From an uncultured cyanobacterium (GTDB lineage: Bacteria; Cyanobacteriota; Cyanobacteriia; Cyanobacteriales; Cyanobacteriaceae): a DNA stretch of 14,465 nucleotides. The number at the start of each line of letters is the position of its first letter. The first letter of the stretch is position 1. Made by a program: the position numbers and the translations under genes. The stretch spans positions 1-14,465 of the forward strand of contig CAVVOP010000024.1 of the NCBI GenBank assembly GCA_963749915.1, in the 5' to 3' direction. The notes below the pieces were generated by a model. It searched no databases, had not been told where the DNA came from, and saw only the letters and a list, made by a program, of their open reading frames with translations. Below are positions 1 to 14,465 of the stretch, one piece after another.

Positions 1-2
1 AA

Positions 3-16
3 GTGCGGAATGTGGG
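3..16. mobile_element. Terminal inverted repeat of an IS1634-like element lying left of the window
   Basis: gtgcggaatgtggg is the exact reverse complement of cccacattccgcac at 13644-13657, the end of the IS1634-family element. It abuts the IS4 transposase frame at ...NKLTFY. Confidence 0.75.
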
Positions 17-1138
17 ATAAAACGTTAACTTGTTACTATTTAAACTTATTATTTTATTAATTTCCTCTTGATATTTTTCATATTTATTTGCCCAACTTTC
101 ACCATATAAACCAATCCAAAATTCACTGTTTCTTTTTGTTTTTCTTCTTTTTTCTTGTGGCCTTCCTATATATTTTTGCTGTCCTTTATTTTTAATTATT
201 CTTCCCTTCAATGTTTGATTTGTATAGGCCATAGCAATCAATAAAATTAGATTAGTTAGTCTTTGTATATTTGCTTTACTTCCTTCTAAATTATAACCTC
301 CTGTTTTATAATCTTTGAACATCATTTCAATACCCATTCTTTGCTCATAAATCTTGATTACTTCTATTTCATTCTCTAATGATGTTAAGATATACCATGG
401 TTCTTCACTACTTTTATTTTTTCTTTTTCTTTGATGATATATTGCTAAATTATGTCGGCTAAAACCAGTCTTTTTTGTAACTTTTATCCCCATCTTTATC
501 TGCTTTACTCCCCTTTCAATCTCTATATCTAATAGTTTTTCATACTTTTTACCCCCTCGATAATAAAAAGTACCCTGTTTTTGTCTGAGGGCAAAATCGA
601 TTTTATTTTTCCTTTTTTGTTTCTCTTTTTTCAACCATGTAGCTAACTCAATGGAATGAAATTCTCTATCTCCTATGATCATAATATGATATTTATTTAA
701 CAATTTGATTACTGGTCGAATTAATGCTTTTTGTTCTTGAAGATTACTCGCCCCTTTTTTGTTCAAAATAGTCCAATAAATTGGCAATGCACGACGAGAA
801 TAAATTAAACTAATCATAAAGACATTATTCTCTTGCCATTGAGTTCGATCTAAAGCGATTATCAAGGGAAAATTACAGGGAATTTGTTGATGAATAATTG
901 TGAGAATAATAGGAAACCAAATTAAACTAATACTTAAACCCGTAAGCACTAAAAATCTTTGAATGTGTCTTCGGCGACTTTCAAACAAAATTGGCAAGGG
1001 AAAATAAGTGGCTAAGGTTTCTATTTTAACTTGTTTATACTGATTTAATAAACCAATTAAAATTGATAATGTTTGAAATTGTGTTGGTTTTAAATATCGA
1101 TTTAAATGTGTTTCAAAATCTTTTAACAAACTAATCAT
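17..1138 (-). pseudogene. IS4-family DDE transposase, interrupted near its C-terminus by an IS1634-type end
   Basis: Hand translation gives one open frame from ATG 1138 (MISLLKDFETHLNRYL...) to the window edge, so it is absent from the ORF track. Motifs: IALDRTQW, IIGDREF, EPWYILTSL, and YEQRMGIEMMFKDYK (IS4 YREK signature). Confidence 0.88.
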
Positions 1139-1516: not shown

Positions 1517-2122
1517 ATGGAAGAAAAATTAATTGCCATTACAGGGGATAAGGGTGGTGTCGGGAAGTCAACGATCGCCGCTCTTACTGCTGAATGGCTA
1601 TTACATAAAAATCATCCAGTCACAATTATTGACGCAGATCCTAATCAAACAACTCAAACTTGGATTGACAAATGCGCGGAAAAAGGACGCAATATCAATA
1701 CAGGGAAAATGATAACGATTGTTGATACTGCTGGTACTAGTGGCTCAAGTCTTAGTAAATATATTCGTAATGCAGATTTAATATTAGTACCATTTAAACC
1801 TCATGTAGCTGATTTAGAAGTGATTGTAGCTTGGTTTTTGTCTCTCAAGGAATCATTACAAGAGCGTATCTTTTTTATCCCTAATATGTTGTCCAATACT
1901 AAAGAACAACGTCAAGGAGTCAATGAGTTAGAAACTTTAATTGAAGAGGAAGGAAGAGGGAAAATATTACCTGGTTTAATTGAACGAAAAAAAGTAGAAG
2001 ATAAAAAAATAGAAAAAAAAGTTGAGCAAAAAGTAAGTCAATCTGAAGAAGTACAACCTAATTACACACAATCCCTTTCAATACGATGCAATACATTATT
2101 ATACACTACAATACAAATTTGA
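1517..2122 (+). CDS. parA: ParA/CbiA-family partition ATPase, C-terminus probably truncated or chimeric
   Basis: Deviant Walker A GDKGGVGKST, IIDADP, IVDTAG, LILVP. After LPGLIER the sequence becomes K/E-rich, runs into the ATAC repeats and overlaps the hsdR end. Confidence 0.8.
   Translation: MEEKLIAITGDKGGVGKSTIAALTAEWLLHKNHPVTIIDADPNQTTQTWIDKCAEKGRNINTGKMITIVDTAGTSGSSLSKYIRNADLILVPFKPHVADLEVIVAWFLSLKESLQERIFFIPNMLSNTKEQRQGVNELETLIEEEGRGKILPGLIERKKVEDKKIEKKVEQKVSQSEEVQPNYTQSLSIRCNTLLYTTIQI
2081..2116. repeat. 10-bp-phased ATAC repeats at the parA/hsdR convergence
   Basis: atacgatgca atacattatt atacactaca atacaa: ATAC at 2081, 2091, 2101 and 2111. Confidence 0.55.
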
Positions 2123-5100
2123 TTTCTACAGTATCATTGAAAGAACGGACGATCGCAATAATATTATCAGCATCATCATCATTAAATACCCCATCGAGTC
2201 CTTCTGTATGAATATCTGTAAAAGGAGGCTCATAGAGAAGATAGGGATTCATGACACCATGTTGAGTTAACCAATCAATAATTTGCTCTATGAAACGAAT
2301 TTGGTTAGCTGTTAAGTTAGTGTTTTGTAGATAGATGGCAAAGGCTTTTTTTGCTGCATTACGATCGAGTCCGACTAATTGGCGGATAAAACTTTTAAGA
2401 CTAATGTTTTTACCAAATACTTCTTCAAATTTATCTCTATTTTCAATCTCTTGAGAAGAAAATAGCATCTGTTCGAGTTGGGTTAAATCACTTTCAGTTA
2501 AGGCTAAGTTTCGTTTGAGTTTGGCGATCGCTACATGGTCTTGATTGGCTCGGATATAGGCTTCTACCTTTTTACGATATTGATAAGGGCTAAATCCTGT
2601 TTGAGGTGTGGGAACACTTACTACATCTATATCTTCTAATTCGTCCTGAAAGTCGGTATAAATAATGGTTTCGTCTTGCTTTTCGATAAAAACCATCAAT
2701 TCCCGAAGATTTTTTCTTACTTGTTCCACAAGATGAGGAGTGACATCTTGCCACCAACTCTCTTGTTGTACTTCTTCAATTAAGTTCAGCTTGTCTTTTA
2801 CTGCGGGGATGGTTCTTTTTTCTTCCAGACGAGCAAGTAAATCCCTAATTTTATCTCTGAGCTTCTCGAAGTCAGGGGTATTGTTTAAGATAGCTAACTG
2901 TACCTTTAGGCAAAGTAAATCAAAGTTTTTGATGCGAGGATTTTCCGGAGGTAGGCTATTAGGTAGAGGAATTAAGGTATTAATGATAATTTCTTTGTCT
3001 TGAGGGCTTAAATTATTCCATCTCTCTCGACTGCTAAAGGTTTCTACTTGTTGCAGATGTTTACGAACCAAAAAGTTATTTTCTTCCATACTGGCAACGT
3101 GTTGATGTAATTCATCTAACAGTTGTTTGGTTAAATTATCATCCTTGGTAACAGAATAAGAAGTATTTTGCGGTTCTTTAAGAGAATATCTTTTATTTTG
3201 AGACTGATAAGAGGAAGATGATTTATTTGTCCCCGTCTGATTCGGATTACTTAAACATTCTTGTAACTCTAATTTCGCTGTTAACAGACGACTAGTTAAA
3301 GTTTCGGCTTGCTTACTCTCTTTTTCTGTGACTTCCTGTTCAAAGTAGGCAAAATTATCACAGAGGTCAAAAATTAAAAATTCTGTCTTATCTCTATCGA
3401 CTCCAAATAAATTAGGACATAAACGAGTCCCTCTACCAATCATCTGATTGAATTTTACTTCTGAATAGACTGGTTTAAAAAAGACAAGGTTAAGGACTTC
3501 GGGTACATCTACACCCGTATCTAACATATCTACAGAAACGGCTATAGTAGGCTCTTTATTTAGCTCAGAAAAGTCATCGAGGATAGTTTGGGCATAACGA
3601 TCGTGACTATCAATGACACGGGCAAATGCACCTTTATAGTGAGGGTAGTTATAGTCAAATCTGGCGACAATAAATTCAGCGTGTTTGTGATTACGAGCGA
3701 AGATGATAGTTTTCCCGAGACGATCGCCTCCATCAATCTTTAAACCCCATTCCATCAAGATTTCTAGGGCTTGATCTACTGTATTTTCATTAAATAACCA
3801 ACGATTAAGAGCGGCAGAGTTAACTTCGTCTGGTATCTCCCCTGTTTCTTCATCAAAAAACTTTTCTTCATATTCTTGTTGTTCTTCAAGGCTAAGTTCA
3901 TTATATTTAACTCCTCGGCGAAGAAATTTAAAAGGGACATCAAGACCAGTGGGAGATACTAAATAACCATCAGCGATCGCATCATTTAATTCATAGGCAA
4001 AGGTGGGATTACCAGCTTCGAGGTCAAATATGCGGTAAGTATCTCGATTAATTTCATCTCTGGGGGTAGCTGTTAAGCCAATAAGGAGAGAATCAAAATA
4101 GCTAAATAAGGCTTGATATTTTTTATAGATACTGCGGTGGGCTTCATCCACAATCACAAGGTCAAAATAACCAACACCAAAGAGGCGATTTTCCCCATCT
4201 ATGCGATTGATACGGTTCATGATGGTGGGGTAGGTAGAGAGGATTATATTCGCTCCTTGAATATCTTTTTCTTTGGTTAAGTCGATCGCTGTGGCATTAG
4301 GTAAAAGGTTGGTTATGGCTCGTTTTGCTTGAGTTAGCAAAGATGTTCTATCAGCTAAAAACAAAACTCGTTTAATCCAGTTAGCTCTAATTAATAAATC
4401 AATCAGGGCGATCGCAGTTCTGGTTTTACCTGTTCCTGTTGCCATTACTAACAGGGCTTTACGAGCCAATTGTTGATCAAAGGTTTCTGTTACTCTTCTA
4501 ATGGCTTCAGTTTGATAGCTTCTTCCTGCGATATCTTGATTTGCTTGAACTAGATCAAGGGATTTACGTTGGCTACGGCGGAAGATAATTCGTTGTAGTT
4601 CATCTTTACGAAAAAAGCCTTCTACTAGGCGAGGGGGATAATTAAGGTCATCCCAAAAATAGGTTTGATAACCGTTACTATAGAAAATTAGGGGTCGTTG
4701 GTTAAATTCTTGTTCTAAACACTCAGCGTATAATTTGGCTTGTTGTTTACCAAGATTAACATCTATACGGGTGCGTTTAGCTTCAATAACCGCCAGGGGT
4801 AAACCGTTATCATCCCACAAGACATAATCGATCGCACCTTTGCCTGTTGGATTAACAGATTTAGGCATATTTCTGACTTCATATTCTATGGTATTAGGTT
4901 GAGTTAAATCCCAACCCATTTCTTTGAGTAAAACATCGATTAAATATTTACGGGTTTCAGCTTCCTTCCAATCGTGGTCATCTTTTACAGCAGTATTTGT
5001 CTGTATGAGTTGGTCAATTTTCGCTTTGAGTTGAGCTAATTCTGCTTCTGTTTTTTGTTGTCTTTCCTGGGCAATTCTCTTCATTTCTTGAGCTTGAGAG

Positions 5101-5591
5101 AGTTTGCTTTCAAGGTTTTGGAGTTGGACAAGAGTTAATTCTTCTTTGCCTGTTTCTTCTGGCTTAATGAGGAGATTAGGGTCAAATTTCAGTTTAGGTA
5201 AATTGCGACCATTGGGAGAATAATAACGACACAGCCAATAGAGAAAGTGAAATAATTCATTGATGAGGTGAAGAGAATCTTGTTCACTAATTTTTACTGA
5301 GTCATGAACTGCTATATTTCCTATTTTAAGAATGATACGAATCTTGGGAAAAAGGTTAGGACTGAGGTTATCTTTAAAGGTTTGTTCGTGAATTAATGCC
5401 CCTAAACTATTATCGTAGGGAAGGTTTAAATAAGGATCATTGCCATAAAGCCAGTGAACTGATTGTTCGAGGGTATAACGGGCATAGAAACAACTGGCAC
5501 GGCTATCACCAAAAACTAATTTCTCGGCACTGGTAGCACTTTCATAAATCTCAGGGAAGTCGGTTTGTAAAAAGTCAAAATTTGACGGCAT
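2106..5591 (-). CDS. hsdR: Type I restriction enzyme R subunit
   Basis: 1161 aa. Nuclease motif IDYVL...VIEAK, Walker A MATGTGKT, VIVDEAH, GLTATP, DMLDTGVD, QMIGRGTR. DUF4145-like N-terminus and EcoEI-R-like C-terminus. Confidence 0.96.
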   Translation of the reverse strand: MPSNFDFLQTDFPEIYESATSAEKLVFGDSRASCFYARYTLEQSVHWLYGNDPYLNLPYDNSLGALIHEQTFKDNLSPNLFPKIRIILKIGNIAVHDSVKISEQDSLHLINELFHFLYWLCRYYSPNGRNLPKLKFDPNLLIKPEETGKEELTLVQLQNLESKLSQAQEMKRIAQERQQKTEAELAQLKAKIDQLIQTNTAVKDDHDWKEAETRKYLIDVLLKEMGWDLTQPNTIEYEVRNMPKSVNPTGKGAIDYVLWDDNGLPLAVIEAKRTRIDVNLGKQQAKLYAECLEQEFNQRPLIFYSNGYQTYFWDDLNYPPRLVEGFFRKDELQRIIFRRSQRKSLDLVQANQDIAGRSYQTEAIRRVTETFDQQLARKALLVMATGTGKTRTAIALIDLLIRANWIKRVLFLADRTSLLTQAKRAITNLLPNATAIDLTKEKDIQGANIILSTYPTIMNRINRIDGENRLFGVGYFDLVIVDEAHRSIYKKYQALFSYFDSLLIGLTATPRDEINRDTYRIFDLEAGNPTFAYELNDAIADGYLVSPTGLDVPFKFLRRGVKYNELSLEEQQEYEEKFFDEETGEIPDEVNSAALNRWLFNENTVDQALEILMEWGLKIDGGDRLGKTIIFARNHKHAEFIVARFDYNYPHYKGAFARVIDSHDRYAQTILDDFSELNKEPTIAVSVDMLDTGVDVPEVLNLVFFKPVYSEVKFNQMIGRGTRLCPNLFGVDRDKTEFLIFDLCDNFAYFEQEVTEKESKQAETLTSRLLTAKLELQECLSNPNQTGTNKSSSSYQSQNKRYSLKEPQNTSYSVTKDDNLTKQLLDELHQHVASMEENNFLVRKHLQQVETFSSRERWNNLSPQDKEIIINTLIPLPNSLPPENPRIKNFDLLCLKVQLAILNNTPDFEKLRDKIRDLLARLEEKRTIPAVKDKLNLIEEVQQESWWQDVTPHLVEQVRKNLRELMVFIEKQDETIIYTDFQDELEDIDVVSVPTPQTGFSPYQYRKKVEAYIRANQDHVAIAKLKRNLALTESDLTQLEQMLFSSQEIENRDKFEEVFGKNISLKSFIRQLVGLDRNAAKKAFAIYLQNTNLTANQIRFIEQIIDWLTQHGVMNPYLLYEPPFTDIHTEGLDGVFNDDDADNIIAIVRSFNDTVEIKFVL

Positions 5592-5599
5592 AATATTTA

Positions 5600-5998
5600 T
5601 TTTTAATTCTGATTTTTCATAACTGAAATGTGATTTTCAAACATTAATTTAATTTGGCTAAATAAGTAACTCCTAAATGCCCTAATCTTCGGATTAAATT
5701 AAGTTACCTTAATGGTTACTAATTTAGAGACTGTTATCTTTGGGATTGCAATTTTTAATGCTTCTGTCATGTTTAAACTACAGGGTTATTCTCAAATTCT
5801 TGTAAAAATTCTTCACGTTCATTTTTACTAATGTATTATCAAGATTTGGACGATTTGAGACATTTTCTAATTCGAAATACACTTTTACTCATCAAATCTG
5901 ATGAGTTTTCTAGTAAATCTAGGGTGAATTTTGTTGCACTTACTGTTGAGAAAAGGTAATGCACTAACAATAACGTTAACATCAACTTCAATCTTCAT
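5600..5998 (-). pseudogene. PIN-domain toxin, heavily frameshifted
   Basis: Starts MKIEVDVNVIVSAL (PIN D-x-N motif). Later fragments in shifting frames include YISKNEREEFLQEF and a PKDN-like motif. Many indels and stops; the 3' boundary is approximate. Confidence 0.65.
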
Positions 5999-6002
5999 TT
6001 TT

Positions 6003-6201
6003 TCATTCTTCGTTTAAAATTTCTTCCAATATTTCAGGAGTTAAGCCTCTAGCTTGGGCTTTTTCGCTAATTTCATCCATTAATTTACTTAGTTTATCAC
6101 TGGATTTTTGTCTAATGTTTTTGGGCTAAAATTAGCATCTCACTGAGTTGTTTTTCTGACATTAATTCTATTTCTTGTAAGAGTAATTCTTTGGTTGTCA
6201 T
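6003..6201 (-). pseudogene. Small putative antitoxin upstream of the PIN gene, one frameshift
   Basis: MTTKELLLQEIELMSEKQLSEMLILAQ continues as NIRQKSSDKLSKLMDEISEKAQARGLTPEILEEILNEE* if one base is removed from the homopolymer at 6118-6122. Confidence 0.6.
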
Positions 6202-6222
6202 TGTTTTAATTGATCTTCTAAT

Positions 6223-6402
6223 TTAATTAATTATTGTATAAATTCTTTGAAGTCTTGGTTGAGCATTATTGTATTTATATTGGTGGTATTGTTGGCGGAT
6301 TTCTTCTAGGGCTTCTAGTCTTTTTGTATAAGGTTGTTGTTGCCAGTAATTAAAGTCGCTTTTTTGTTCTTTAATATTTATTTTTTGAATTACTTTTTTC
6401 AT
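6223..6402 (-). CDS. 59-aa hypothetical TA-associated protein
   Basis: MKKVIQKINIKEQKSDFNYWQQQPYTKRLEALEEIRQQYHQYKYNNAQPRLQRIYTIIN*. Below the ORF-track cutoff; co-oriented just after mazF. Confidence 0.7.
   Translation of the reverse strand: MKKVIQKINIKEQKSDFNYWQQQPYTKRLEALEEIRQQYHQYKYNNAQPRLQRIYTIIN
6231..6266 (-). pseudogene. Stub of a putative nucleotidyltransferase (DUF6036-like) gene
   Basis: Overlapping frame MLNQDFKEFIQ* resembles the N-terminus of the nucleotidyltransferase that usually follows this small gene. It stops after 11 codons and no remainder is present. Confidence 0.45.
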
Positions 6403-6416
6403 CTTTTATCTTCTTT

Positions 6417-6734
6417 TTAAGGGGCAAACATTTCGGCGAGGGTTGATAAAATTTGTTCTTGTTCAGATGTTGTTAATGTTCCCAATTTTTTGACTAACCG
6501 AGTCTTATCAACAGTTCTAATTTGATCTAGGACAACTTTTCCTTCTTTACCTTGAAATTCACAAGGAATACGAGTGGGGTATAGATTGCCCTTGGTTGTC
6601 ATGGGTGCAATGATAACTGTGTTGATATTGTCATTCATTTCATCGGGGGAAATAATGACGCAGGGACGAGTCTTCTGGATTTCACTGCCAACAGTAGGAT
6701 TGAGTTGAACTAAATAGACATCAAAACGTTTCAT
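6417..6734 (-). CDS. mazF: PemK/MazF-family endoribonuclease toxin
   Basis: DVYLVQLNPTVGSEIQKTRPCVIISP...VVLDQIRTVDKTRL. Confidence 0.93.
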   Translation of the reverse strand: MKRFDVYLVQLNPTVGSEIQKTRPCVIISPDEMNDNINTVIIAPMTTKGNLYPTRIPCEFQGKEGKVVLDQIRTVDKTRLVKKLGTLTTSEQEQILSTLAEMFAP

Positions 6735-7001
6735 TTACCACTCCCATTCTTGGTTATCCCAATCAGTTGCGGTTTGTTCATCCAAGAGTCTATCGTCTTG
6801 ATTATTTGCCATTTCTTGGAATGATTCTGCCCAACCTTGACGGCTTATTTCTGGCACTGGGCGGATAATAATTTGTCCTTTCTCTAATTGTATTTCGATC
6901 GCCCCTGTGATGCCTGATGCTTCTAACCAAGTCTTGGGTAGCCTTACTCCTTGGGAGTTACCTATTTTGATTAGGCGAGATAAGATAGCGTTTTTCGTCA
7001 T
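6735..7001 (-). CDS. mazE: AbrB/MazE/SpoVT-family antitoxin
   Basis: LIKIGNSQGVRLPK swapped-hairpin motif, acidic W-rich tail, directly abutting mazF. Confidence 0.92.
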   Translation of the reverse strand: MTKNAILSRLIKIGNSQGVRLPKTWLEASGITGAIEIQLEKGQIIIRPVPEISRQGWAESFQEMANNQDDRLLDEQTATDWDNQEWEW

Positions 7002-7036
7002 TTATATTACTTTTATTTCCCCAGAAATTTTCCTTA

Positions 7037-7057
7037 AGTAATTACATTATAATTACT
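7037..7057 (-). promoter_or_regulatory. Putative mazEF operator palindrome overlapping a -10 box
   Basis: AGTAATTA-catta-TAATTACT is a perfect 8-5-8 inverted repeat. Minus-strand TATAAT at 7051-7046, about 45 nt before the mazE start. Confidence 0.6.
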
Positions 7058-7126
7058 AAGTTTAAAGTTTGGTTAGTTTGCTTTACTCCCCTTAGCCCTC
7101 TGTTGAAAAGCAAGGAGGGAATTTTA

Positions 7127-7351
7127 TTAGGCGACGAAGTCGTAAACAGGGGTTTGAATAAAGTGATCTGGTTTTTTTTGCTGTTTAATAATTTCTTGAA
7201 TTCGTTCTACTGTTTCAGGGGAAAAATATTGTTCTCCTGTTTCGGTGTTAACTCTTGCGGGTACATTTTCAATTAGGTAAAATTGACCGTTAATTTCTAA
7301 AGAATAGGTTACTTGAGTCTCAATTAGGTTTTCGTTATGTTCTGTATTCAT
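7127..7351 (-). CDS. YgiT-type/MqsA-like antitoxin domain, cysteine-less variant, orphan
   Basis: VTYSLEINGQFYLIENVPARVNTETGEQYFSPET matches the YgiT-type fold pattern. No DUF4258-like toxin is adjacent. Confidence 0.75.
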   Translation of the reverse strand: MNTEHNENLIETQVTYSLEINGQFYLIENVPARVNTETGEQYFSPETVERIQEIIKQQKKPDHFIQTPVYDFVA

Positions 7352-7357
7352 GCTTAT

Positions 7358-7597
7358 TTATGCACTCACTGTTACGGGAGTTAAATGGTAAATAGTAGCA
7401 AGTTGAGTTGCGGTTTTTAAGTCATTATTTTGTAATGCAAGGCGGAGGTTATCAAGTTTTTCGGCTTCCTCAAGAGATAGATAAGGTGACCAATCTTCAT
7501 CTGTGTAGGTGAGGGTAATTTCAATTTCAGCGAGATATTCTCCTTCACGAATTATTTTGGTTTGGGTTTTAGTATATAGTTCAATGTTCATAATCAT
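7358..7597 (-). CDS. Small hypothetical protein, putative antitoxin
   Basis: KIIREGEYLAEIEITL...WSPYLSLEEAEKLDNLRLAL; resembles a TA-neighbourhood family. Function is inferred from context. Confidence 0.65.
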   Translation of the reverse strand: MIMNIELYTKTQTKIIREGEYLAEIEITLTYTDEDWSPYLSLEEAEKLDNLRLALQNNDLKTATQLATIYHLTPVTVSA

Positions 7598-7607
7598 TAT
7601 TTTGGTA

Positions 7608-7985
7608 CTAATGATTTAGAGGATAGGGTTGAATTAAAACTTCTAGGGGAATGTTTAGCCCTTCGTGTAAAGAGCGAATCATCTGTTTACTCAATGCTCG
7701 TTTACCTGATAATATTTCAGACACTTTAGATTTATTACCAATATAAGGAATTAAGTCCTTTTGTTTAAGTCCAAGTTGTTCGATACGAAATTTTATGGCA
7801 TCGATTGGATGTGCTAAAGCAATAGAATAATGTTTTTCTTCGTAAGCTTCTACTAAAGTTGTGAGTATATCCAATTCGTCAAATTCTGGGGTATTTGGAA
7901 TCGCTTCCATTAGCTGTTCAATTCGATCGAGTGTTGCTTGGTAATCTTGCTCGTTTGCGATCGGTTTAATTGTTGCTGTATTCAT
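7608..7985 (-). CDS. higA: HigA-family HTH antitoxin, orphan
   Basis: IKPIANEQDYQATL...LVEAYEEKHY...PIDAIKFRIEQLGLKQKDL...KSKVSEILSGKR. No higB upstream. Confidence 0.85.
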   Translation of the reverse strand: MNTATIKPIANEQDYQATLDRIEQLMEAIPNTPEFDELDILTTLVEAYEEKHYSIALAHPIDAIKFRIEQLGLKQKDLIPYIGNKSKVSEILSGKRALSKQMIRSLHEGLNIPLEVLIQPYPLNH

Positions 7986-8344
7986 AAAAGGATTTCTTGT
8001 TTACGACTGGTTAAAATATCCTCAGCAGTCAAGGGTTTAACGGCAGAAATGGGTACAGTTAAAATATTAATAGATTCTCCTACGGCATTAAATATCTCTA
8101 AAATACATCCTGTTTCTCCTCCTGTAGGATGTTCGACAAAATCAATCAAGGTCGCTATATCTCCTTGTTTTAAGTTATGTTGGGAAAGGTTACGTGTTAA
8201 AGCTATTTCTTTGTATAATTCAATCTTCATAATTTTATTTCCTACTTTTGCTAAATATTTTGATTTATCATTTCTCTGTTTAAAAACTAATAGATATTTA
8301 GTAAATTTTGGCTCTGGTATGATGGCTTTTTCTGGTATTTTCAC
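7982..8344 (-). CDS. DUF4926-like protein (ATG 8230) with an in-frame fused N-terminal stub of a DUF6883-like protein
   Basis: The first ~35 aa (IIPEPKFTKYLL...NDKSKYLAKVG) look DUF6883-like. From MKIELYKEIALTRNL...GDIATLID...GCILEIFNAVGESI it looks DUF4926-like. The GTG start overlaps the hsdS TGA. Confidence 0.7.
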   Translation of the reverse strand: MKIPEKAIIPEPKFTKYLLVFKQRNDKSKYLAKVGNKIMKIELYKEIALTRNLSQHNLKQGDIATLIDFVEHPTGGETGCILEIFNAVGESINILTVPISAVKPLTAEDILTSRKQEILL

Positions 8345-9540
8345 AGTTCTCCTTTAAAGGCTCTTTGTAATAGGGAGTTGAAGAGATTTTCTGATTCTTG
8401 ACAGATGTCTTTTGATTGGTTTTGCATTCGTAATTCTATATTTCTGCGAACATAAACATATTTTTTCTGTAAATCAATAGGAGGACTAAATACTTGAAAA
8501 CTTTTAATGTCTTTAAATTTAAAGTCTTTTGAGCCACACCTTTACTTGTTGATCTGCTTGTCTTTGATTAGCATCCGATTGCATGTAAGCCAAGAAATAA
8601 ATCAGGATATATTTTAGATTAATCAGGTTTAATATTCGCTATATGCACTTTGAAATACAAAATTTTTTATCAGTTCTCGACTAATGACCTGCAATACCAT
8701 AGAATTCCTACTGTTGTATAAGAGAATATCATTAATTTCAATTGGAACATCTTTAGTTCAGTTTCTGCCAGAATCTTCACTTATAATTTACTGACTTTGA
8801 AATCTATTTCTCCATTACAATATTGCTAACAAATAAGAAAGGAATACCATTTCTTGACTATTCAGGACATTTGATGAGTTCCGTCTGTAAACTGATTGCA
8901 AATTTCACTAAGTTTCTTGATTTCCCATCCTTTAGGATTAGTAACAGGATCGCCGAACATATCGAGGAAAAGCGATCGTCCTAATTCTTCGGTTAATTTA
9001 ATTGCCTCTTGTCGTTTCCTTCTGATCTCATCCGCCTTGTCTAATATACTCGCTATTCTGCGTTGCAGGGCGATCGGGGGTAATGGGATTTTTAATTTTT
9101 AAAACTATCTTTTATTAACTCTATATAGTGTACTGTCTAGAACCTATATGATTCTAAGTTGAGCTATTGACGAATACAGCCAATATATAAGTATTATGAG
9201 AAATCTATCTTGAATTCATGGAGAATTAAACATTTATCTGTTGCTTAAATGATAATCTCTTTCTAGCTATAGCTACTTTACCAATAGTAGCCTATAAACT
9301 ACAACTAATATGAATCTTTTGGTAGTAAGTTCACCCTATCTTAAACATATTGTTAATCTTTTCTGTATACTTGTAATGTTGACTGAATTAATTATACTTC
9401 ATGATATCTAATTCTGATGTCACAGATGGAATTACCTTCTCATAATCCAGAATGTTCACTTATGGTTTGGACCAGTTACACTTCTGTATACATACAGCAA
9501 TTTTTGATACTTCTACGATTTCATCCATTAGTATTTTCAT
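8341..9540 (-). pseudogene. hsdS: Type I restriction specificity subunit, frameshifted in both TRDs as assembled
   Basis: 1200 nt. Open central region 9095-8871 (LKIPLPPIALQRRIASILDKADEIRRKRQEAIKLTEELGRSLFLDMFGDPVTNPKGWEIKKL) and open tail 8511-8341 (PPIDLQKK...ENLFNSLLQRAFKGEL*). TRD fragments such as ATIGKVAIA, GIPFLFVSNI and GVAQKTLNL lie in shifting frames. Confidence 0.92.
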
Positions 9541-9584
9541 CCCAACATCCCCTCCAACTCCTTCAAATCAGCCATAATTTTATC
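9537..9584 (-). repeat. Duplicate of the hsdM 3' end (mini-ORF MADLKELEGMLG*, 9575-9537) coupled to the hsdS start
   Basis: 9544-9584 matches 11844-11884 at 36/41 nt with no gaps. It contains the SD-like GGAGGGG, and its TGA overlaps the hsdS ATG (ATGA). Confidence 0.9.
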
Positions 9585-9651
9585 CTTAATAACGTTTTCA
9601 AAAACTAATTAGACAACAAACAAATATCTTTAATAAATCTTATTATGATCT

Positions 9652-9876
9652 CTATAATAGAGCTAAAAATTCATCAATAGTTAAATCACAATCTCTTAAA
9701 ATTTGAGCAAATAAACCTTTTCCTATCGTCTCATTAGAGTGAACAGGTACAACAGTCCTTCTACCATCAGGATGAGCTAAAAAGTGATGACTTCCCTTAA
9801 TTCTAATTACCGAAAAATTAGCTTTTTTTAAAGCCTTAATCATCTTTTTTCCACTTAAAGCGGGAATATTACTCAT
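9652..9876 (-). CDS. hicA: HicA-family toxin
   Basis: IRIKGSHHFLAHPDGRRTVVPVH...IGKGLFAQIL. Confidence 0.9.
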   Translation of the reverse strand: MSNIPALSGKKMIKALKKANFSVIRIKGSHHFLAHPDGRRTVVPVHSNETIGKGLFAQILRDCDLTIDEFLALL

Positions 9877-9877
9877 T

Positions 9878-10093
9878 TTATTTGTTAATGGCTACTCTTT
9901 GAACCCCAATAAATTCTAAAGGTTTAAAATCTTCTTTTTCTACTTCCAGACAAAGTTCGATCGCTTCTGTTATTCTCTCTAATAATTCGTCCATCGTTTT
10001 CCCTTGTGTATGACATCCTTTCAAAGAAGGTACTGAAGCAACTAAATAGCCATCTTCGTCTTTTTCAATAACTACATTAAAATATTCACTCAT
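9878..10093 (-). CDS. hicB: HicB-family antitoxin (short)
   Basis: VVIEKDEDGYLVASVPSLKGCHTQGKTMDELLERITEAI. Confidence 0.9.
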   Translation of the reverse strand: MSEYFNVVIEKDEDGYLVASVPSLKGCHTQGKTMDELLERITEAIELCLEVEKEDFKPLEFIGVQRVAINK

Positions 10094-10194
10094 AATTTTC
10101 TCCTGTGTACATTTTCTATCAATTGATAAAACTTTTCTAAATCTTCCTCAGATAAATAATCTAATTCTGCCTTAATTAACTCTTTAATACTCAT
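10090..10194 (-). pseudogene. Truncated small antitoxin-like gene (34 aa)
   Basis: AGGTGA SD, then MSIKELIKAELDYLSEEDLEKFYQLIENVHRRKL*. Stop overlaps the hicB ATG. N-terminus resembles that of 6003-6201. Confidence 0.5.
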
Positions 10195-10233
10195 AAATCA
10201 CCTATTTATTTTATTTGATTTAATTATAAAAAC

Positions 10234-10554
10234 TTAAGCAATTTGTAGCTCAGATTGTTTCCTAAACTCGTCCAACAGCAAGAAAAACTTATCAAACCCT
10301 GCTTTTTCATCATGACAAGAAAGCATAATTAACTTAGCCCAACTAGTAACACTTTTAACCCCTAAACGTTGCTGTAACCAAGGCTGAAAACTATCATAAA
10401 ACAACTCCTCCTCTTCATCCAACTCTTCCCCCATTTCCGTTCGAGCAAACTCATAACCCACTAAAAACATAAATAAATCACTCACCGAAGGGCGACCTAA
10501 ATACATTCCCGGTGTTTCTTTAATTTGTTGTAGAGTTTCATATAAATTAGTCAT
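10234..10554 (-). CDS. Hypothetical protein (106 aa)
   Basis: Strong SD (AGGAGG) upstream; IKETPGMYLG motif; function unknown. Confidence 0.8.
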   Translation of the reverse strand: MTNLYETLQQIKETPGMYLGRPSVSDLFMFLVGYEFARTEMGEELDEEEELFYDSFQPWLQQRLGVKSVTSWAKLIMLSCHDEKAGFDKFFLLLDEFRKQSELQIA

Positions 10555-10614
10555 AACTTTAACCTCCTAGAGAATCTAACTCTTGTATGATCAAGAACTT
10601 TTATCATCAAAATC

Positions 10615-10857
10615 TCAAGAAAAAAGTCTAGTCAATAAATCATCTTTTGTCAGATTAAAATGATTAGCAACATCTCTCAGGATAGCGTTTAAAGTTCCTA
10701 TTTTAAGAGGTTTATGAGCAGGAATAGTCACATGATGCTCACCATTTTCTTGAGTAGTTAAGCGAATATGACTACCAGTTTGATGACTAACCTCATAATC
10801 TAATTTTTTTAGAGCTTTAACTAAGTCATAACTCGATAAATCTCTGGGTAACTTCAT
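10615..10857 (-). CDS. hicA: HicA-family toxin
   Basis: HQTGSHIRL...HHVTIPAHKPLKIGTLNAIL. Confidence 0.9.
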   Translation of the reverse strand: MKLPRDLSSYDLVKALKKLDYEVSHQTGSHIRLTTQENGEHHVTIPAHKPLKIGTLNAILRDVANHFNLTKDDLLTRLFS

Positions 10858-11090
10858 AAAGCAATAACCTCATCTCTGACAATGTGTAAACGAATGATTT
10901 GAGGACGATTATTTTGATCAGGAAAATGACAATGTACAGCGTCTTTAATTTCCCTTTTTAACTCTTCCAAAGTATCAGCTTGAGTAAAAATTGATTCTCC
11001 TAAAGCCTGAGCAACATAACCCCCCTCGGTATCGTCTTCCACTAAAAAAATAATTTCTGTTAAAGGAGAGAAATTCGCTTCAATGGTCAT
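10854..11090 (-). CDS. HicB-like antitoxin
   Basis: EIIFLVEDDTEGGYVAQALGESIFTQADTLEELK; 4-nt overlap with the downstream hicA. Confidence 0.8.
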   Translation of the reverse strand: MTIEANFSPLTEIIFLVEDDTEGGYVAQALGESIFTQADTLEELKREIKDAVHCHFPDQNNRPQIIRLHIVRDEVIAL

Positions 11091-11152
11091 ATTAATACCT
11101 CAATGAATTCTGAAAAATTAATTAGTTTATAGTTTTTGATTTTAACTTGAGA

Positions 11153-11365
11153 TTATTTAATCGCGAAAGATAAAACCGCTAAAATATCATCTAATTCTAA
11201 ATCTTCATAATCCATTAAAATTTCTTCAGTAGTCATACCTGAGCTTAGTAACTCTAAAACAAACTCCACAGGATACCTTAAACCTCGGATACAAGGTTTT
11301 CCATGACATATATTAGGATTGATCGTAATACGTTTTATAAGTTCCATAAATACCTCTTTTGACAT
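11153..11365 (-). CDS. DUF433-family putative antitoxin, orphan (second Met is the likely start)
   Basis: RITINPNICHGKPCIRGLRYPVEFVLELLSSGMTTEEIL.DY.DL. No DUF5615/PIN partner follows. Confidence 0.88.
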   Translation of the reverse strand: MSKEVFMELIKRITINPNICHGKPCIRGLRYPVEFVLELLSSGMTTEEILMDYEDLELDDILAVLSFAIK

Positions 11366-11375
11366 TTAAGATAGA

Positions 11376-11588
11376 TTAAGCGTACATTAACTTGCCTTTA
11401 GGTTGAGGAATATCTCGCCCCAACTCCTGAGCTATTTCTAGCCATTCTTTAATGATAACCTCAGCATTACTAACAGCCTCCTGATAAGTCTTACCATCTG
11501 CCATACAACCTGATAATTCTGGCACTTCCACAATAAAACAATCATCTACTTCACTCCAATAAATAATTAATTCATATTTAATTGACAT
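11376..11588 (-). CDS. hicB: HicB-family antitoxin (short)
   Basis: YELIIYWSEVDDCFIVEVPELSGCMADGKTYQEAV...GRDIPQP. Confidence 0.9.
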   Translation of the reverse strand: MSIKYELIIYWSEVDDCFIVEVPELSGCMADGKTYQEAVSNAEVIIKEWLEIAQELGRDIPQPKGKLMYA

Positions 11589-11838
11589 CGCTATCTCCTA
11601 ATTTGTATTTAATGATTAAATTTCTAAGCTGTTTAACCTGATAGGCTTTTGCTTTTGAGCCATTAGGTTGTATGTTGATAATTTCACTCACTCCCTCTTT
11701 CCAAAAAATGTGATGACTACCTTTAACTCTCTGACTAAAACCCAACTTAATTAGTAACAAACAAAAATCGGCAAAATCAATATTACGATCAGATGTCCCT
11801 CTGAGTATTTTATCTAAGAGTTTTTCATATTTACCCAT
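11578..11838 (-). CDS. hicA: HicA-family toxin
   Basis: LGFSQRVKGSHHIF...INIQP...KAKAYQVKQ; overlaps the hsdM end by 8 nt. Confidence 0.88.
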   Translation of the reverse strand: MGKYEKLLDKILRGTSDRNIDFADFCLLLIKLGFSQRVKGSHHIFWKEGVSEIINIQPNGSKAKAYQVKQLRNLIIKYKLGDSDVN

Positions 11839-13306
11839 TAGTTAACATTCCCTCTAACTCCTGCAAATCAGCCATAATCTCATCTTCAAGAGCCTTTAAT
11901 TTACCTAAAATAACCTTTGGTGGATCATAACTAACCTCCTCATATTCAATCTCTTTGTAACGATTAATAGAAAGGTCATAACCATTTTCTGCTATCTCCT
12001 CCTTGGGTACAAAAAAAGCTTTAGCCTTACGATCAGTATCTTTGGCTAGATCTCGACTATGCCACTTCTCAATAATGTCAGGAATATCATTGGCTTCCAC
12101 AGGTTGCCGTTTATCATCCAACGATAACCCATCAGCTTCCATATCATAGAACCAAACTGAATCCGTTCCCCCTGCTCCTGTCTTAGTAAACATTAATACC
12201 GCTGTAGATACACCAGCATAAGGCTTAAATACCCCTGAAGGCATGGAGATAATACCATCTAACTTATGGTCTTCTACCAAGGTCTGACGTAGGCTTTTAT
12301 GAGCTTTAGACGAGCCAAATAAAACACCATCAGGAACAATTACCGCCGCTCTACCTCCTTTCTTTAACAACCGTAGAAATAAAGCCCCAAAGAGTAATTC
12401 TGTTTTCTTGGTTTTAATTACCTTACTTAAATCTTTGGCAATGGTACTCGCTTCTACCGAACCCTTAAAAGGAGGATTAGCCAGTATTAGGGTAAAAGCT
12501 TCTTCCACTCCTGAATGTTCTTCTGCTAGAGAATCTCTGGCTTCAATTTTAGGGTTGGCTATGCCGTGTAACATCATATTCATGCTACCAATACGAAGCA
12601 TAGTGGCATCAAAGTCAAACCCGTGAAACATATCATTATTAAAATGTTCTCGATTACCTTGAGCATTTAATACTAAATTACCATCACTATCCTTTTTATG
12701 CTGTAAATATTCCGCAACTCCTACCAAAAAGCCACCAGTACCGCAAGCAGGATCACAGACTATTTCTCTGGGAATGGGAGCCATCAATTCCACCATCATT
12801 TTAATAATATGACGAGGGGTACGAAACTGCCCGTTAGTTCCTGCGGTGGTTAGTTTAGAGAGCATATATTCATATAAATCCCCTTTAGTATCCCTGTCTT
12901 CCATAGGAATCTGATCAATTTGCTCTACCACGTTGGCAAGAAGGGCTGGAGAGGCAATTAAAAAGACTGCATCCTTCATATGTTGAGTATAAGCACCACC
13001 TTGTTTTCCTAAAGTTTTGATAAAGGGAAAAGCATGATCTCTGACACTAACTAACATATCTTCAGAGTTTTCATGCTTGAAATTTGACCAGCGACAATTT
13101 TGATGCTCAGGGTCAAATGTAGGGTTTTTGATTTTTCCCCCTAATCGTTTAACCTTTTTTTCTTTAGCTAACTCGAGATCATCTAATCGCTTAATAAATA
13201 AAAGATAGGATATTTGCTCGATCACAGACAGAGGGTTACTAATGCCGTTATTCCAGAATGTTGTCCAAAGTTTATCGACCTTCGATTTTAATTCACCTGT
13301 GATCAT
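11831..13306 (-). CDS. hsdM: Type I R-M N6-adenine methyltransferase subunit
   Basis: GDLYEYML, GQFRTP, DPACGTGGF (motif I), LANPPF (motif IV), VPDGVLF. Confidence 0.97.
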   Translation of the reverse strand: MITGELKSKVDKLWTTFWNNGISNPLSVIEQISYLLFIKRLDDLELAKEKKVKRLGGKIKNPTFDPEHQNCRWSNFKHENSEDMLVSVRDHAFPFIKTLGKQGGAYTQHMKDAVFLIASPALLANVVEQIDQIPMEDRDTKGDLYEYMLSKLTTAGTNGQFRTPRHIIKMMVELMAPIPREIVCDPACGTGGFLVGVAEYLQHKKDSDGNLVLNAQGNREHFNNDMFHGFDFDATMLRIGSMNMMLHGIANPKIEARDSLAEEHSGVEEAFTLILANPPFKGSVEASTIAKDLSKVIKTKKTELLFGALFLRLLKKGGRAAVIVPDGVLFGSSKAHKSLRQTLVEDHKLDGIISMPSGVFKPYAGVSTAVLMFTKTGAGGTDSVWFYDMEADGLSLDDKRQPVEANDIPDIIEKWHSRDLAKDTDRKAKAFFVPKEEIAENGYDLSINRYKEIEYEEVSYDPPKVILGKLKALEDEIMADLQELEGMLTNG

Positions 13307-13492: not shown

Positions 13493-13521
13493 GTGCCACA
13501 TAAGACTGCGTTATGTCTAAC
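13493..13521. promoter_or_regulatory. dif-like tyrosine recombinase core site
   Basis: GTGCCACATAA-gactgcg-TTATGTCTAAC: inverted ACATAA/TTATGT arms with a 7-nt spacer, similar to E. coli dif GGTGCGCATAA-N6-TTATGTTAAAT. Overlaps the recombinase ATG. Confidence 0.6.
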
Positions 13522-13643
13522 TCGACAGCTAAGAATGAAATAACTAGGGAAGAGTTGATTATTCAATGGTTACATGGGCTTTCTCCGAATACGCAAAGAA
13601 CTTATCGTCTCTATTTGAATCGGTTTTTGGCTCATGTTAATAA
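13513..13643 (+). pseudogene. N-terminal fragment of a tyrosine recombinase/integrase, cut by IS insertion
   Basis: MSNSTAKNEITREELIIQWLHGLSPNTQRTYRLYLNRFLAHVN shows the S-x-x-T-x-x-x-Y-x6-F core-binding-domain pattern. It ends exactly at the IS terminus; catalytic residues are not in the window. Confidence 0.7.
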
Positions 13644-14465
13644 CCCACATTCCGCACGTCACTTTGTAAGATGATAAAAGTATTAAAACCAAGCAACTTA
13701 TTTTGGACAAAATATAAGTAATAATACTCAATATCTTCTTTATTCGCGTTTTGTATTCGCGAACTTTGCTCAAATTAAAATCTCATTGTCAATAACTTCA
13801 CCTTTAATGAGAATAAATAAACAGAGCAAATCTATCAGTTTTCTATTCTTTATTTATGATATTATAATTGAGAATGTTTAGACTCTTAAATCCCATAAGT
13901 TATCCAGATAAAATATAATAATTATGACAAGAAATCGGGAAAAAACTTAAAATTAGTTTTCGTTCATTTGTTAGATTTACTATCTGTTCTTTTCCTCTAT
14001 TTATTACTAAATGAATTCCTTGAAAACTTTGAAATATCCATCTTAACGTCGGACGTTTCGTTAGTTTTCCTAATTGATTTTTTATTCCGATTTTTTTCTC
14101 TTTTAATAAGCGACGTATTTCTCTTTGCCCTAAAGAATATACTAACAGGCATAATCCCAACAACATTGACATTGTTTCGATTCTTTTTGGGGTTTTTAAA
14201 AACACACTATCGGCAAAAAATAATGGCTCTTTCAGAAAACTAAAACCTCTTTCTGCGGTTTGTTGCTCTTTATACTTAATTAAAATTTCATCCGAATTAA
14301 ATTTACTTTTATCTAATCTATTTGTCGCTAACACAAATCTTCCTGCTCTTTTTTTTGATTCGTTTATTTTAGTTAAACCTGATTTCAAAATAGCCGTAAC
14401 TTGATAAGTTTTTCCCGATTTTTCTTCCTTCTTTTTCGATTTTTTCTGGTGATTATTTAATTCAC
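13644..14465 (-). mobile_element. IS1634-family element (3' part), terminus cccacattccgcac at 13644
   Basis: Transposase C-terminus, a ~255-nt downstream region, and a terminus that matches 3-16. Confidence 0.8.
13900..14465 (-). CDS. IS1634-family transposase, C-terminal part (frame open to the window edge)
   Basis: GRFVLATN, YKEQQTAERGFSFLK.PLFFADSVFLK.P.RIE, PTLRWIFQ. Confidence 0.88.
   Translation of the reverse strand, partial: ELNNHQKKSKKKEEKSGKTYQVTAILKSGLTKINESKKRAGRFVLATNRLDKSKFNSDEILIKYKEQQTAERGFSFLKEPLFFADSVFLKTPKRIETMSMLLGLCLLVYSLGQREIRRLLKEKKIGIKNQLGKLTKRPTLRWIFQSFQGIHLVINRGKEQIVNLTNERKLILSFFPISCHNYYILSG

Follow-up and report, generated by a model that had tools for sequence, protein, structure and literature searches.

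A copy of the hsdM end, probably displaced, in front of hsdS

The window analysed here is a whole contig of 14,465 nt (C24) from an AT-rich, 4.7-Mb cyanobacterial genome (G000). It carries, on the minus strand, a type I restriction-modification (R-M) operon in the order hsdM, eight small open reading frames (ORFs), a copy of the hsdM end, hsdS, a second cargo array and hsdR. The copy, on which this analysis is centred, reproduces the last ~45–60 bases of hsdM and stands directly before hsdS. In total, 43 such hsdM-tail copies are found in 33 cyanobacterial type I R-M loci, and their comparison points to the copies being likely the displaced ends of earlier hsdM genes, left as scars of homology-anchored insertion.

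In the window, positions 9544–9584 and 11844–11884 are identical at 36 of 41 sites, ungapped, both on the minus strand and 2300 bp apart, exactly as the original prediction had described. The repeat extends to 44 of 54 identical positions (9544–9597 against 11844–11897), with 15 bp as the longest perfect run between the two copies. By repeat alignment, the upstream copy (11844–11897) lies within hsdM, which ends in ...DEIMADLQELEGMLTNG*, and the downstream copy (9537–9597) has an LG end, ...DKIMADLKELEGMLG*. The latter contains, again as predicted, an ATG (9575–9573) with AGGA 7 nt before it; it also holds the Shine-Dalgarno (SD) motif of hsdS and a 12-codon ORF (9575–9537, MADLKELEGMLG*) whose TGA (9539–9537) forms an ATGA overlap with the hsdS ATG (9540–9538).

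This pair is the top repeat family in the window. A profile built from 63 hsdM tails scores 58.9 at hsdM and 51.7 at the downstream copy, and the next best site on both strands of the 4.7-Mb genome reaches only 26.3. Extra eroded copies were also considered within the array: one candidate had been picked by eye before a 106-aa ORF, and the profile found none; its match of 23.1 at 10425 lies inside the 106-aa ORF itself. The hicA-to-tail junction of the window is present in two metagenome contigs (X2 record 10 and X11 record 4), and past the tail the X2 contig continues into a different, open hsdS-like start.

The present hsdM terminates in LTNG* and overlaps the start of hicA, and the LG*/ATGA end carried by the downstream copy is the commonest terminus class, seen in 29 of 64 real tails. 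The proposal that the copy restores the translational coupling of hsdS is thus better worded as retention, the junction having been kept and not restored.

Copies of the hsdM end in other operons

Relatives of hsdM were gathered from genomes and metagenomes, giving 210 loci, 207 of them with a readable hsdM end; after removal of 18 duplicates, 189 loci were kept. The cyanobacterial set comprises 72 loci (70 labelled as such, plus contigs L161 and L173 added on sequence likeness), in which hsdM and hsdS are adjacent in 17, separated by cargo in 38, followed by cargo without a located hsdS in 15, and too short to be judged in two. An anchored tail scan was applied with a cut-off of 15, the shuffle maximum being 11.4 over 53 gaps. 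Copies at or above this cut-off are present in 20 of the 38 cargo loci with a located hsdS, the window included, and in 4 of the 15 without. A fresh, order-level search yielded 28 further loci, of which 5 were duplicates, 5 had hsdM and hsdS adjacent, 2 were too short, and 14 and 2 had gaps with and without hsdS; copies are present in 8 of the 14 and in 1 of the 2. Up to three copies occur in one locus (L156, L263). These survey counts are descriptive, as related loci are not independent. Outside cyanobacteria, 85 of 117 loci are adjacent, and alignment to the locus's own tail recovers a copy in 1 of 24 gaps with hsdS (L078) and in 0 of 7 without.

Several candidates were left out of the counts: alignment matches failing the anchored scan (L086, L154, L160), matches scoring 12–15 (L033, L076 and the internal ones of L084 and L039), and alignment matches that were truncated or lacked the core (L053, L060, L111).

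Recombination at the hsdM tail, as first proposed, is supported, as is the recurrence of tail duplicates in other cargo-bearing loci, and the possibility of a one-off remnant is contradicted by the 33 loci with tail duplicates. Empty hsdM-hsdS junctions exist as well, in 17 of 72 and 5 of 28 cyanobacterial loci, these being further removed from the window. The literature searched gives no account of hsdM-end duplication or repeats, most subscription papers and supplements lying outside its coverage, and hsdM-end copies in R-M operons are apparently undescribed.

Origin of the copies and retention of translation signals

What follows the copies, and what they resemble, both point to former hsdM ends. 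For 8 of 14 internal copies, the DNA that comes next is found elsewhere directly behind a real hsdM (scores 46–220), and 7 of 19 copies preceding hsdS are followed by an hsdS start that elsewhere stands behind a real hsdM (scores of at least 46). A better match to the hsdM of another locus than to their own is observed for 21 of 33 copies; the copy of L128, for instance, matches the hsdM end of L068 at 84 of 87 positions, and the DNA behind it also matches. Third-position bias is alike in copies (0.17/0.10/0.24) and real tails (0.15/0.09/0.23).

The cleanest filled/empty pair lies outside cyanobacteria, in a gut-metagenome group. In the filled loci L203, L210 and L217, a gene of ~300 aa is inserted behind hsdM, and the ~20 nt before hsdS match, by eye and below the alignment threshold, the hsdM end of the empty loci L196, L204, L215 and L216; the filled loci's own hsdM end differs from these retained ~20 nt. 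Scars of this kind are also seen further along the operon: of 33 hsdS-hsdR gaps, 4 show them at hsdS ends and 1 at the hsdR head. Inside their hsdS-hsdR arrays, L133, L153, L155 and L156 carry hsdS-tail copies of 26–102 nt, a copy of the first 120 nt or so of hsdR's start region (120 nt) being present in L153 as well.

The translation signals of the old end are commonly kept. An SD-like motif is found in 28 of 33 copies, an ATGA or GTGA overlap in 26, and a start codon at the hsdS position in 27; an internal stop occurs in 2, and an in-frame, SD-led start of the copy's own in 15 by a loose test. These comparisons support retention of SD and overlap well. The mini-ORF was also considered as a conserved leader peptide and rejected: the ATG corresponds to a normal Met codon of hsdM, and an SD-led in-frame start is present in only 15 of 33 copies.

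Apparent reuse of the copies and shuffling of modules

Tail copies appear to be reused as short homologies. Of the pairs of loci with the same cargo end in front of a copy, all 21 (8 clusters) continue behind it into unrelated DNA (scores 14–28, against an all-pair median of 16), so that a switch is needed within or just behind the copy. The 5' part of hsdS is likewise alike in 0 of 136 pairs of empty loci, and by this variability the copy behaves like a real hsdM-hsdS junction. In L035, two copies have in common a derived change that is absent from the hsdM of that locus. Repeat-delimited cassettes that change position are a feature of these loci; the hicA-hicB module, for example, stands directly behind hsdM in the window and in L031, and behind a tail copy in L173.

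Cargo plainly also shuffles at junctions devoid of tails, the next gene being common in 44 and different in 48 of 92 such pairs. The array of the window is itself a mosaic and not one element: in L031 and L033 its modules are ordered differently and stand next to other genes. L031, the closest relative, has the window's first and last modules and an intact hsdS, and no tail copy can be recognised in it. By slot, 23 cargo families are found only between hsdM and hsdS, 15 only between hsdS and hsdR, and 4 in both, as expected if flanking homology routes cargo.

Proposed mechanism and alternatives

To account for these features, we propose that insertion is integrase-free and anchored by homology, that it displaces the resident hsdM end, and that the displaced end is then reused as a short homology; from the comparison of loci, we consider this probable, with some reserve. 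Incoming DNA with its own hsdM end and cargo would recombine into the operon without an integrase. The donor would pair via long homology in hsdM, and its other end would join by microhomology or short homeology into the last 40–150 nt of the resident hsdM. The old end would be kept together with its ribosome-binding site and ATGA overlap, the downstream gene would still be translated, and joins losing the old end would be selected against. The resulting cargo-plus-tail unit could then, as the shared junctions suggest, serve as a ready-made short homology, either stacking before the first cassette of another strain or taking a new hsdS 5' half, its junction acting as a real hsdM-hsdS junction does. 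Finally, copies would erode or be deleted while cargo also shuffles at tail-less junctions, which would result in a mosaic array with one surviving copy, as in the window. Variable boundaries and displaced ends fit homology-facilitated illegitimate recombination, the event itself being invisible in genomes. DprA and ComEC are present in G000, a weak indication since they are matched in 11 and 10 of 14 control genomes.

A number of observations weigh against this proposal. The locus's own hsdM is the best match for 12 of 33 copies, which fits local duplication or excised circles too. Age polarity is weak: of 9 multi-copy loci, 5 have the hsdM-proximal copy closest to the hsdM of that locus, 1 is tied and 3 are reversed. 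No copy exceeds the threshold in 18 of 38 and 6 of 14 cargo loci, including the nearest relatives L031–L033, and beyond cyanobacteria the pattern is seldom seen, namely in 1 of 24 gaps and in the short gut case. The 21 pairs are not independent, many of them end in hsdS, whose variable 5' part accounts for some of the 21-of-21 result, and about half of the tail-less junctions also differ, tails thus not being required for shuffling. The evidence is wholly comparative, no recombination event having been observed.

The repeat had originally been seen as attL/attR-like scars of a single 2.3-kb element, a view that the variable 5' ends, the lack of a linked integrase and the mosaic array do not support. 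Left boundaries lie 3 to 145 nt upstream of the anchor in 30 independent contexts, and a fixed boundary is absent. With eight integrase domains of G000 as tblastn queries, 6 of 72 loci were matched, none beside the hsdM start; at least 2 kb of upstream sequence was available in 45 of the 72, and distant integrases could be missed. PF00589 has no match on the contig of the window. DNA folding reveals no attC-like hairpin in the window copy (z -0.2/0.4), and only 1 of 32 copies falls below -3. That the cassettes are integrated by a site-specific recombinase, possibly one that works in trans on HIP1 within the hsdM tail, is therefore very improbable in our view, even if some observations would suit it. 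Of 64 real tails, 12 carry a perfect HIP1 octamer, always at the same position, and boundaries are modestly enriched in the bin of that position (6 of 30 contexts, p 0.0008–0.044 across nine simulated nulls); this bin was picked post hoc, the six include the window's copy, in which HIP1 is lacking, and the other 24 boundaries lie elsewhere. Of 33 boundaries, 7 have a HIP1-like octamer, compared with 4.4% for random positions and 13 of 208 for gene ends without tails, and in L156 two copies have HIP1 slightly further upstream. A 53-codon ORF (13513–13674, plus strand), divergent from hsdM and cut by an insertion sequence (IS) of the IS1634 family, presumably resembles an integrase N-terminus; it has no family match, is found in no other locus of the survey, and has a second copy on contig C15. 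According to the summary in PMC4390886, a link between HIP1 and site-specific recombination has been drawn in Synechococcus 7002, and a further published lead on HIP1 is, from the part of it considered here, 10.1101/2024.09.10.611283. Altogether, the link of HIP1 to the boundaries is suggestive only.

Cassettes might instead travel as small circles, made of cargo and one tail, that exit between copies and re-enter at the hsdM end by a RecA-type single crossover, also without an integrase. This would produce the same layouts and would suit the cassettes that take first position at one locus and follow a tail at the other (L156/L157, L173/window), as well as the presence of two such loci in one genome (L062/L066; L258/L263), which would allow exchange. 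We nevertheless regard it as unlikely, since it could not create the first copy, the homology is short and divergent (a 15-bp perfect run in the window), and the modules that make up the window's mosaic array have no tails between them. On paper, a crossover between the two copies would indeed regenerate a normal hsdM-hsdS junction, as had been predicted, but no 2300-nt skip is seen in metagenome contigs. Seven metagenome runs were compared, four of them over both copies (X1, X3, X5, X10), in which neither a 2300-nt joint nor a back-joint is found, although contigs drop rare variants and are no proof of absence; the comparison in X2, X3, X5 and X11 concerns the downstream copy only. Excision between the copies is possible and likely rare, because of the 15-bp perfect match and the addictive cargo. 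That the copies are instead passive, one-time scars of illegitimate insertion, kept for the ribosome-binding site of hsdS and not reused, seems quite improbable. The frequent SD-like motifs and overlaps (28 and 26 of 33 copies), the erosion of copies from the 5' side and the absence of a recognisable copy in the nearest relative would all be expected; on the other hand, all 21 pairs agree in cargo end and copy boundary and yet run on into unrelated DNA, and the two copies of L035 share a change that their hsdM lacks.

If the proposed integrase-free, homology-anchored insertion is correct, the scars record insertion order and provide a testable account of how integrase-free R-M defence hotspots fill. 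With the tail retained, cargo could build up while hsdS stays translated and open to exchange of specificity. The tail can further serve as a probe for finding cargo genes, many of which belong to no known family. A bolder possibility, which we put forward tentatively and would not expect to hold in full, is that of an integrase-free, integron-like system: the hsdM tail would be a self-propagating, portable recombination site supplying cassette translation starts, and toxin-antitoxin-type cassettes and hsdS specificities would be stacked by DNA uptake, with HIP1 seeding a share. The hsdM tail is in any case a natural test site for HIP1 function, and if the integron-like reading were true, HIP1 would gain a natural gene-capture role and a locus to test it in.

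Relation to known arrays

The architecture works like that of the contact-dependent growth inhibition (CDI; cdiA-CT/cdiI) and Rhs arrays and of the type VI secretion system (T6SS) immunity arrays, and is a member of neither, nor an integron. In the orphan module arrays of CDI and Rhs, as set out in the part of Poole et al. 2011 (PMC3150448) considered here, serial modules are each led by a variable-length copy of the conserved part of the upstream gene, divergence begins right after the conserved motif, a module may be first in one strain and downstream in another, and no integrase is invoked. All this is shared: variable-length end copies before modules, with immediate divergence, are what the hsdM loci contain. 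They differ in that CDI/Rhs arrays repeat a motif from within the gene (VENN, DPxGL), and the hsdM loci the very end of the gene, with stop, SD and ATGA; that the toxin fragments of that account are mostly without start signals, whereas the hsdM-array modules are whole genes; and that the last "module" here is the essential hsdS. The scaffold being hsdM and the cargo whole small genes, with no polymorphic toxin scaffold, these loci are not CDI/Rhs systems; they rather extend the orphan-array logic to a restriction operon.

For T6SS immunity arrays of Vibrio cholerae, homology-facilitated illegitimate recombination has been proposed (Kirchberger et al. 2017, PMC5361080). In the portion of that work considered here, upstream homology likewise anchors the donor and the resident part is pushed downstream, in some cases leaving a 3' end behind. 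Those events displace effectors and preserve immunity genes, whereas here a 40–150-nt end of a housekeeping gene is kept; unlike those arrays, hsdM-end copies recur across the phylum and appear to serve again as a junction. Cargo embedded in type I R-M operons is itself known, as in EcoprrI with prrC and in the variable region of the E. coli immigration control region (ICR) (PMC12707154), where accessory genes likewise lie inside or beside hsd operons. The variable content of the ICR is contrasted in that source with an integrase-bearing hotspot, and the part of it considered here describes neither hsdM-end repeats nor serial stacking. The present loci can also be set beside two classical systems.

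Some integrative elements leave their target gene with a second copy of its 3' end (attL/attR), the incoming copy replacing the old end, which moves downstream. The hsdM loci share this replacement and displacement; they differ by the lack of an integrase, the variable repeat length, the several nested copies and the mosaic content. Integron arrays consist of small, toxin-antitoxin-rich cassettes that are separated by repeats, new ones being added at one end. Such repeat-separated cassettes, likely entering at one end, are also seen here. Integrons are a point of comparison in PMC5361080 too. The differences are that no IntI, attC-like hairpin or fixed crossover was found and that the repeat is derived from coding sequence.

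Gene content and state of the locus

All genes of the operon lie on the minus strand. hsdM (11831–13306) encodes an intact type I methyltransferase subunit of 491 aa (N6_Mtase, HsdM_N, MTase_I 3e-191). According to family searches, it is followed by a first module (11376–11838) made of a HicA-family ORF (11578–11838) and a HicB-like ORF (11376–11588), by a 70-aa DUF433 ORF (11153–11365), and by a module (10615–11090) of a 78-aa ORF and a HicA-family ORF (10615–10857). The 78-aa ORF has no Pfam match and, from this pairing, is likely the antitoxin partner of the adjoining ORF. The 106-aa ORF (10234–10554) has no family in Pfam, PADLOC or NCBIfam, and its relatives are confined to the hsdM-hsdS slot (6 of 6 members). 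It often stands behind one other ORF family of no known kind (F17), with which it forms a candidate new two-gene module. A HicB-like ORF (9878–10093) and a HicA-family ORF (9652–9876) make up the last module (9652–10093) before the tail copy. Behind hsdS (8341–9540), which is full length and frameshifted as assembled, the second array (5592–8344) contains DUF4926, HTH_3, YgiT-finger, MazE, PemK/MazF and unknown ORFs, and neither an hsdM-tail nor an hsdS-tail copy was detected in it. The operon ends with an intact hsdR of 1161 aa (2106–5591), of the EcoEI_R_C type by family search. PADLOC gave no match for any of the 11 cargo ORFs tested. Several cargo ORFs in these arrays are partial or without a partner, and ORF 7982–8344 is an apparent fusion, its starts and ends coming from two genes that L033 has apart.

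As assembled, hsdS (9540–8341) has many stops and frameshifts. Compared with L031, its last 740 nt contain 18 short indels (12 insertions and 6 deletions), yet its substitution rate (0.118) shows no excess over that of hsdM (0.131), and the window and L031 are equally distant from a third locus, L034 (0.231 and 0.229). Natural decay is thus disfavoured: indels without extra substitutions make the damage look like sequencing or assembly consensus error, which is probably what it is, hsdS itself probably being intact in the cell. A second indel-rich stretch lies at 5837–6061. Both stretches occur only in strain-variable parts of the contig, hsdM being clean, and probably reflect poorly polished assembly. 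Elsewhere in the genome, one hsdS (C25, 43367–44463) is split in two reading frames (open 168 and 222 aa), and those on C13, C19 and C22 are open.

Beyond the operon, the window carries a ParA-like ORF (1517–2122, plus strand) and a DDE transposase (2–1138, minus strand), and the contig may be a piece of a plasmid; hsdM relatives are present in 22 records of a plasmid collection. A second, degraded copy of the locus lies at a contig end (C9, 1–629), where 43 nt of the hsdM 3' region are joined by a deletion to the middle of hicA, followed by hicB, part of DUF433 and the same IS as in the window at 13644–14465. Finally, G/C skew on the coding strand flips at hsdS, cargo included, both in the window (2106–13306) and over the 72 cyanobacterial loci, with third-position counts of G 5968 against C 3056 in the hsdM-hsdS slot and G 2330 against C 3794 in the hsdS-hsdR slot; this flip is possibly the footprint of recombination centred on hsdS.

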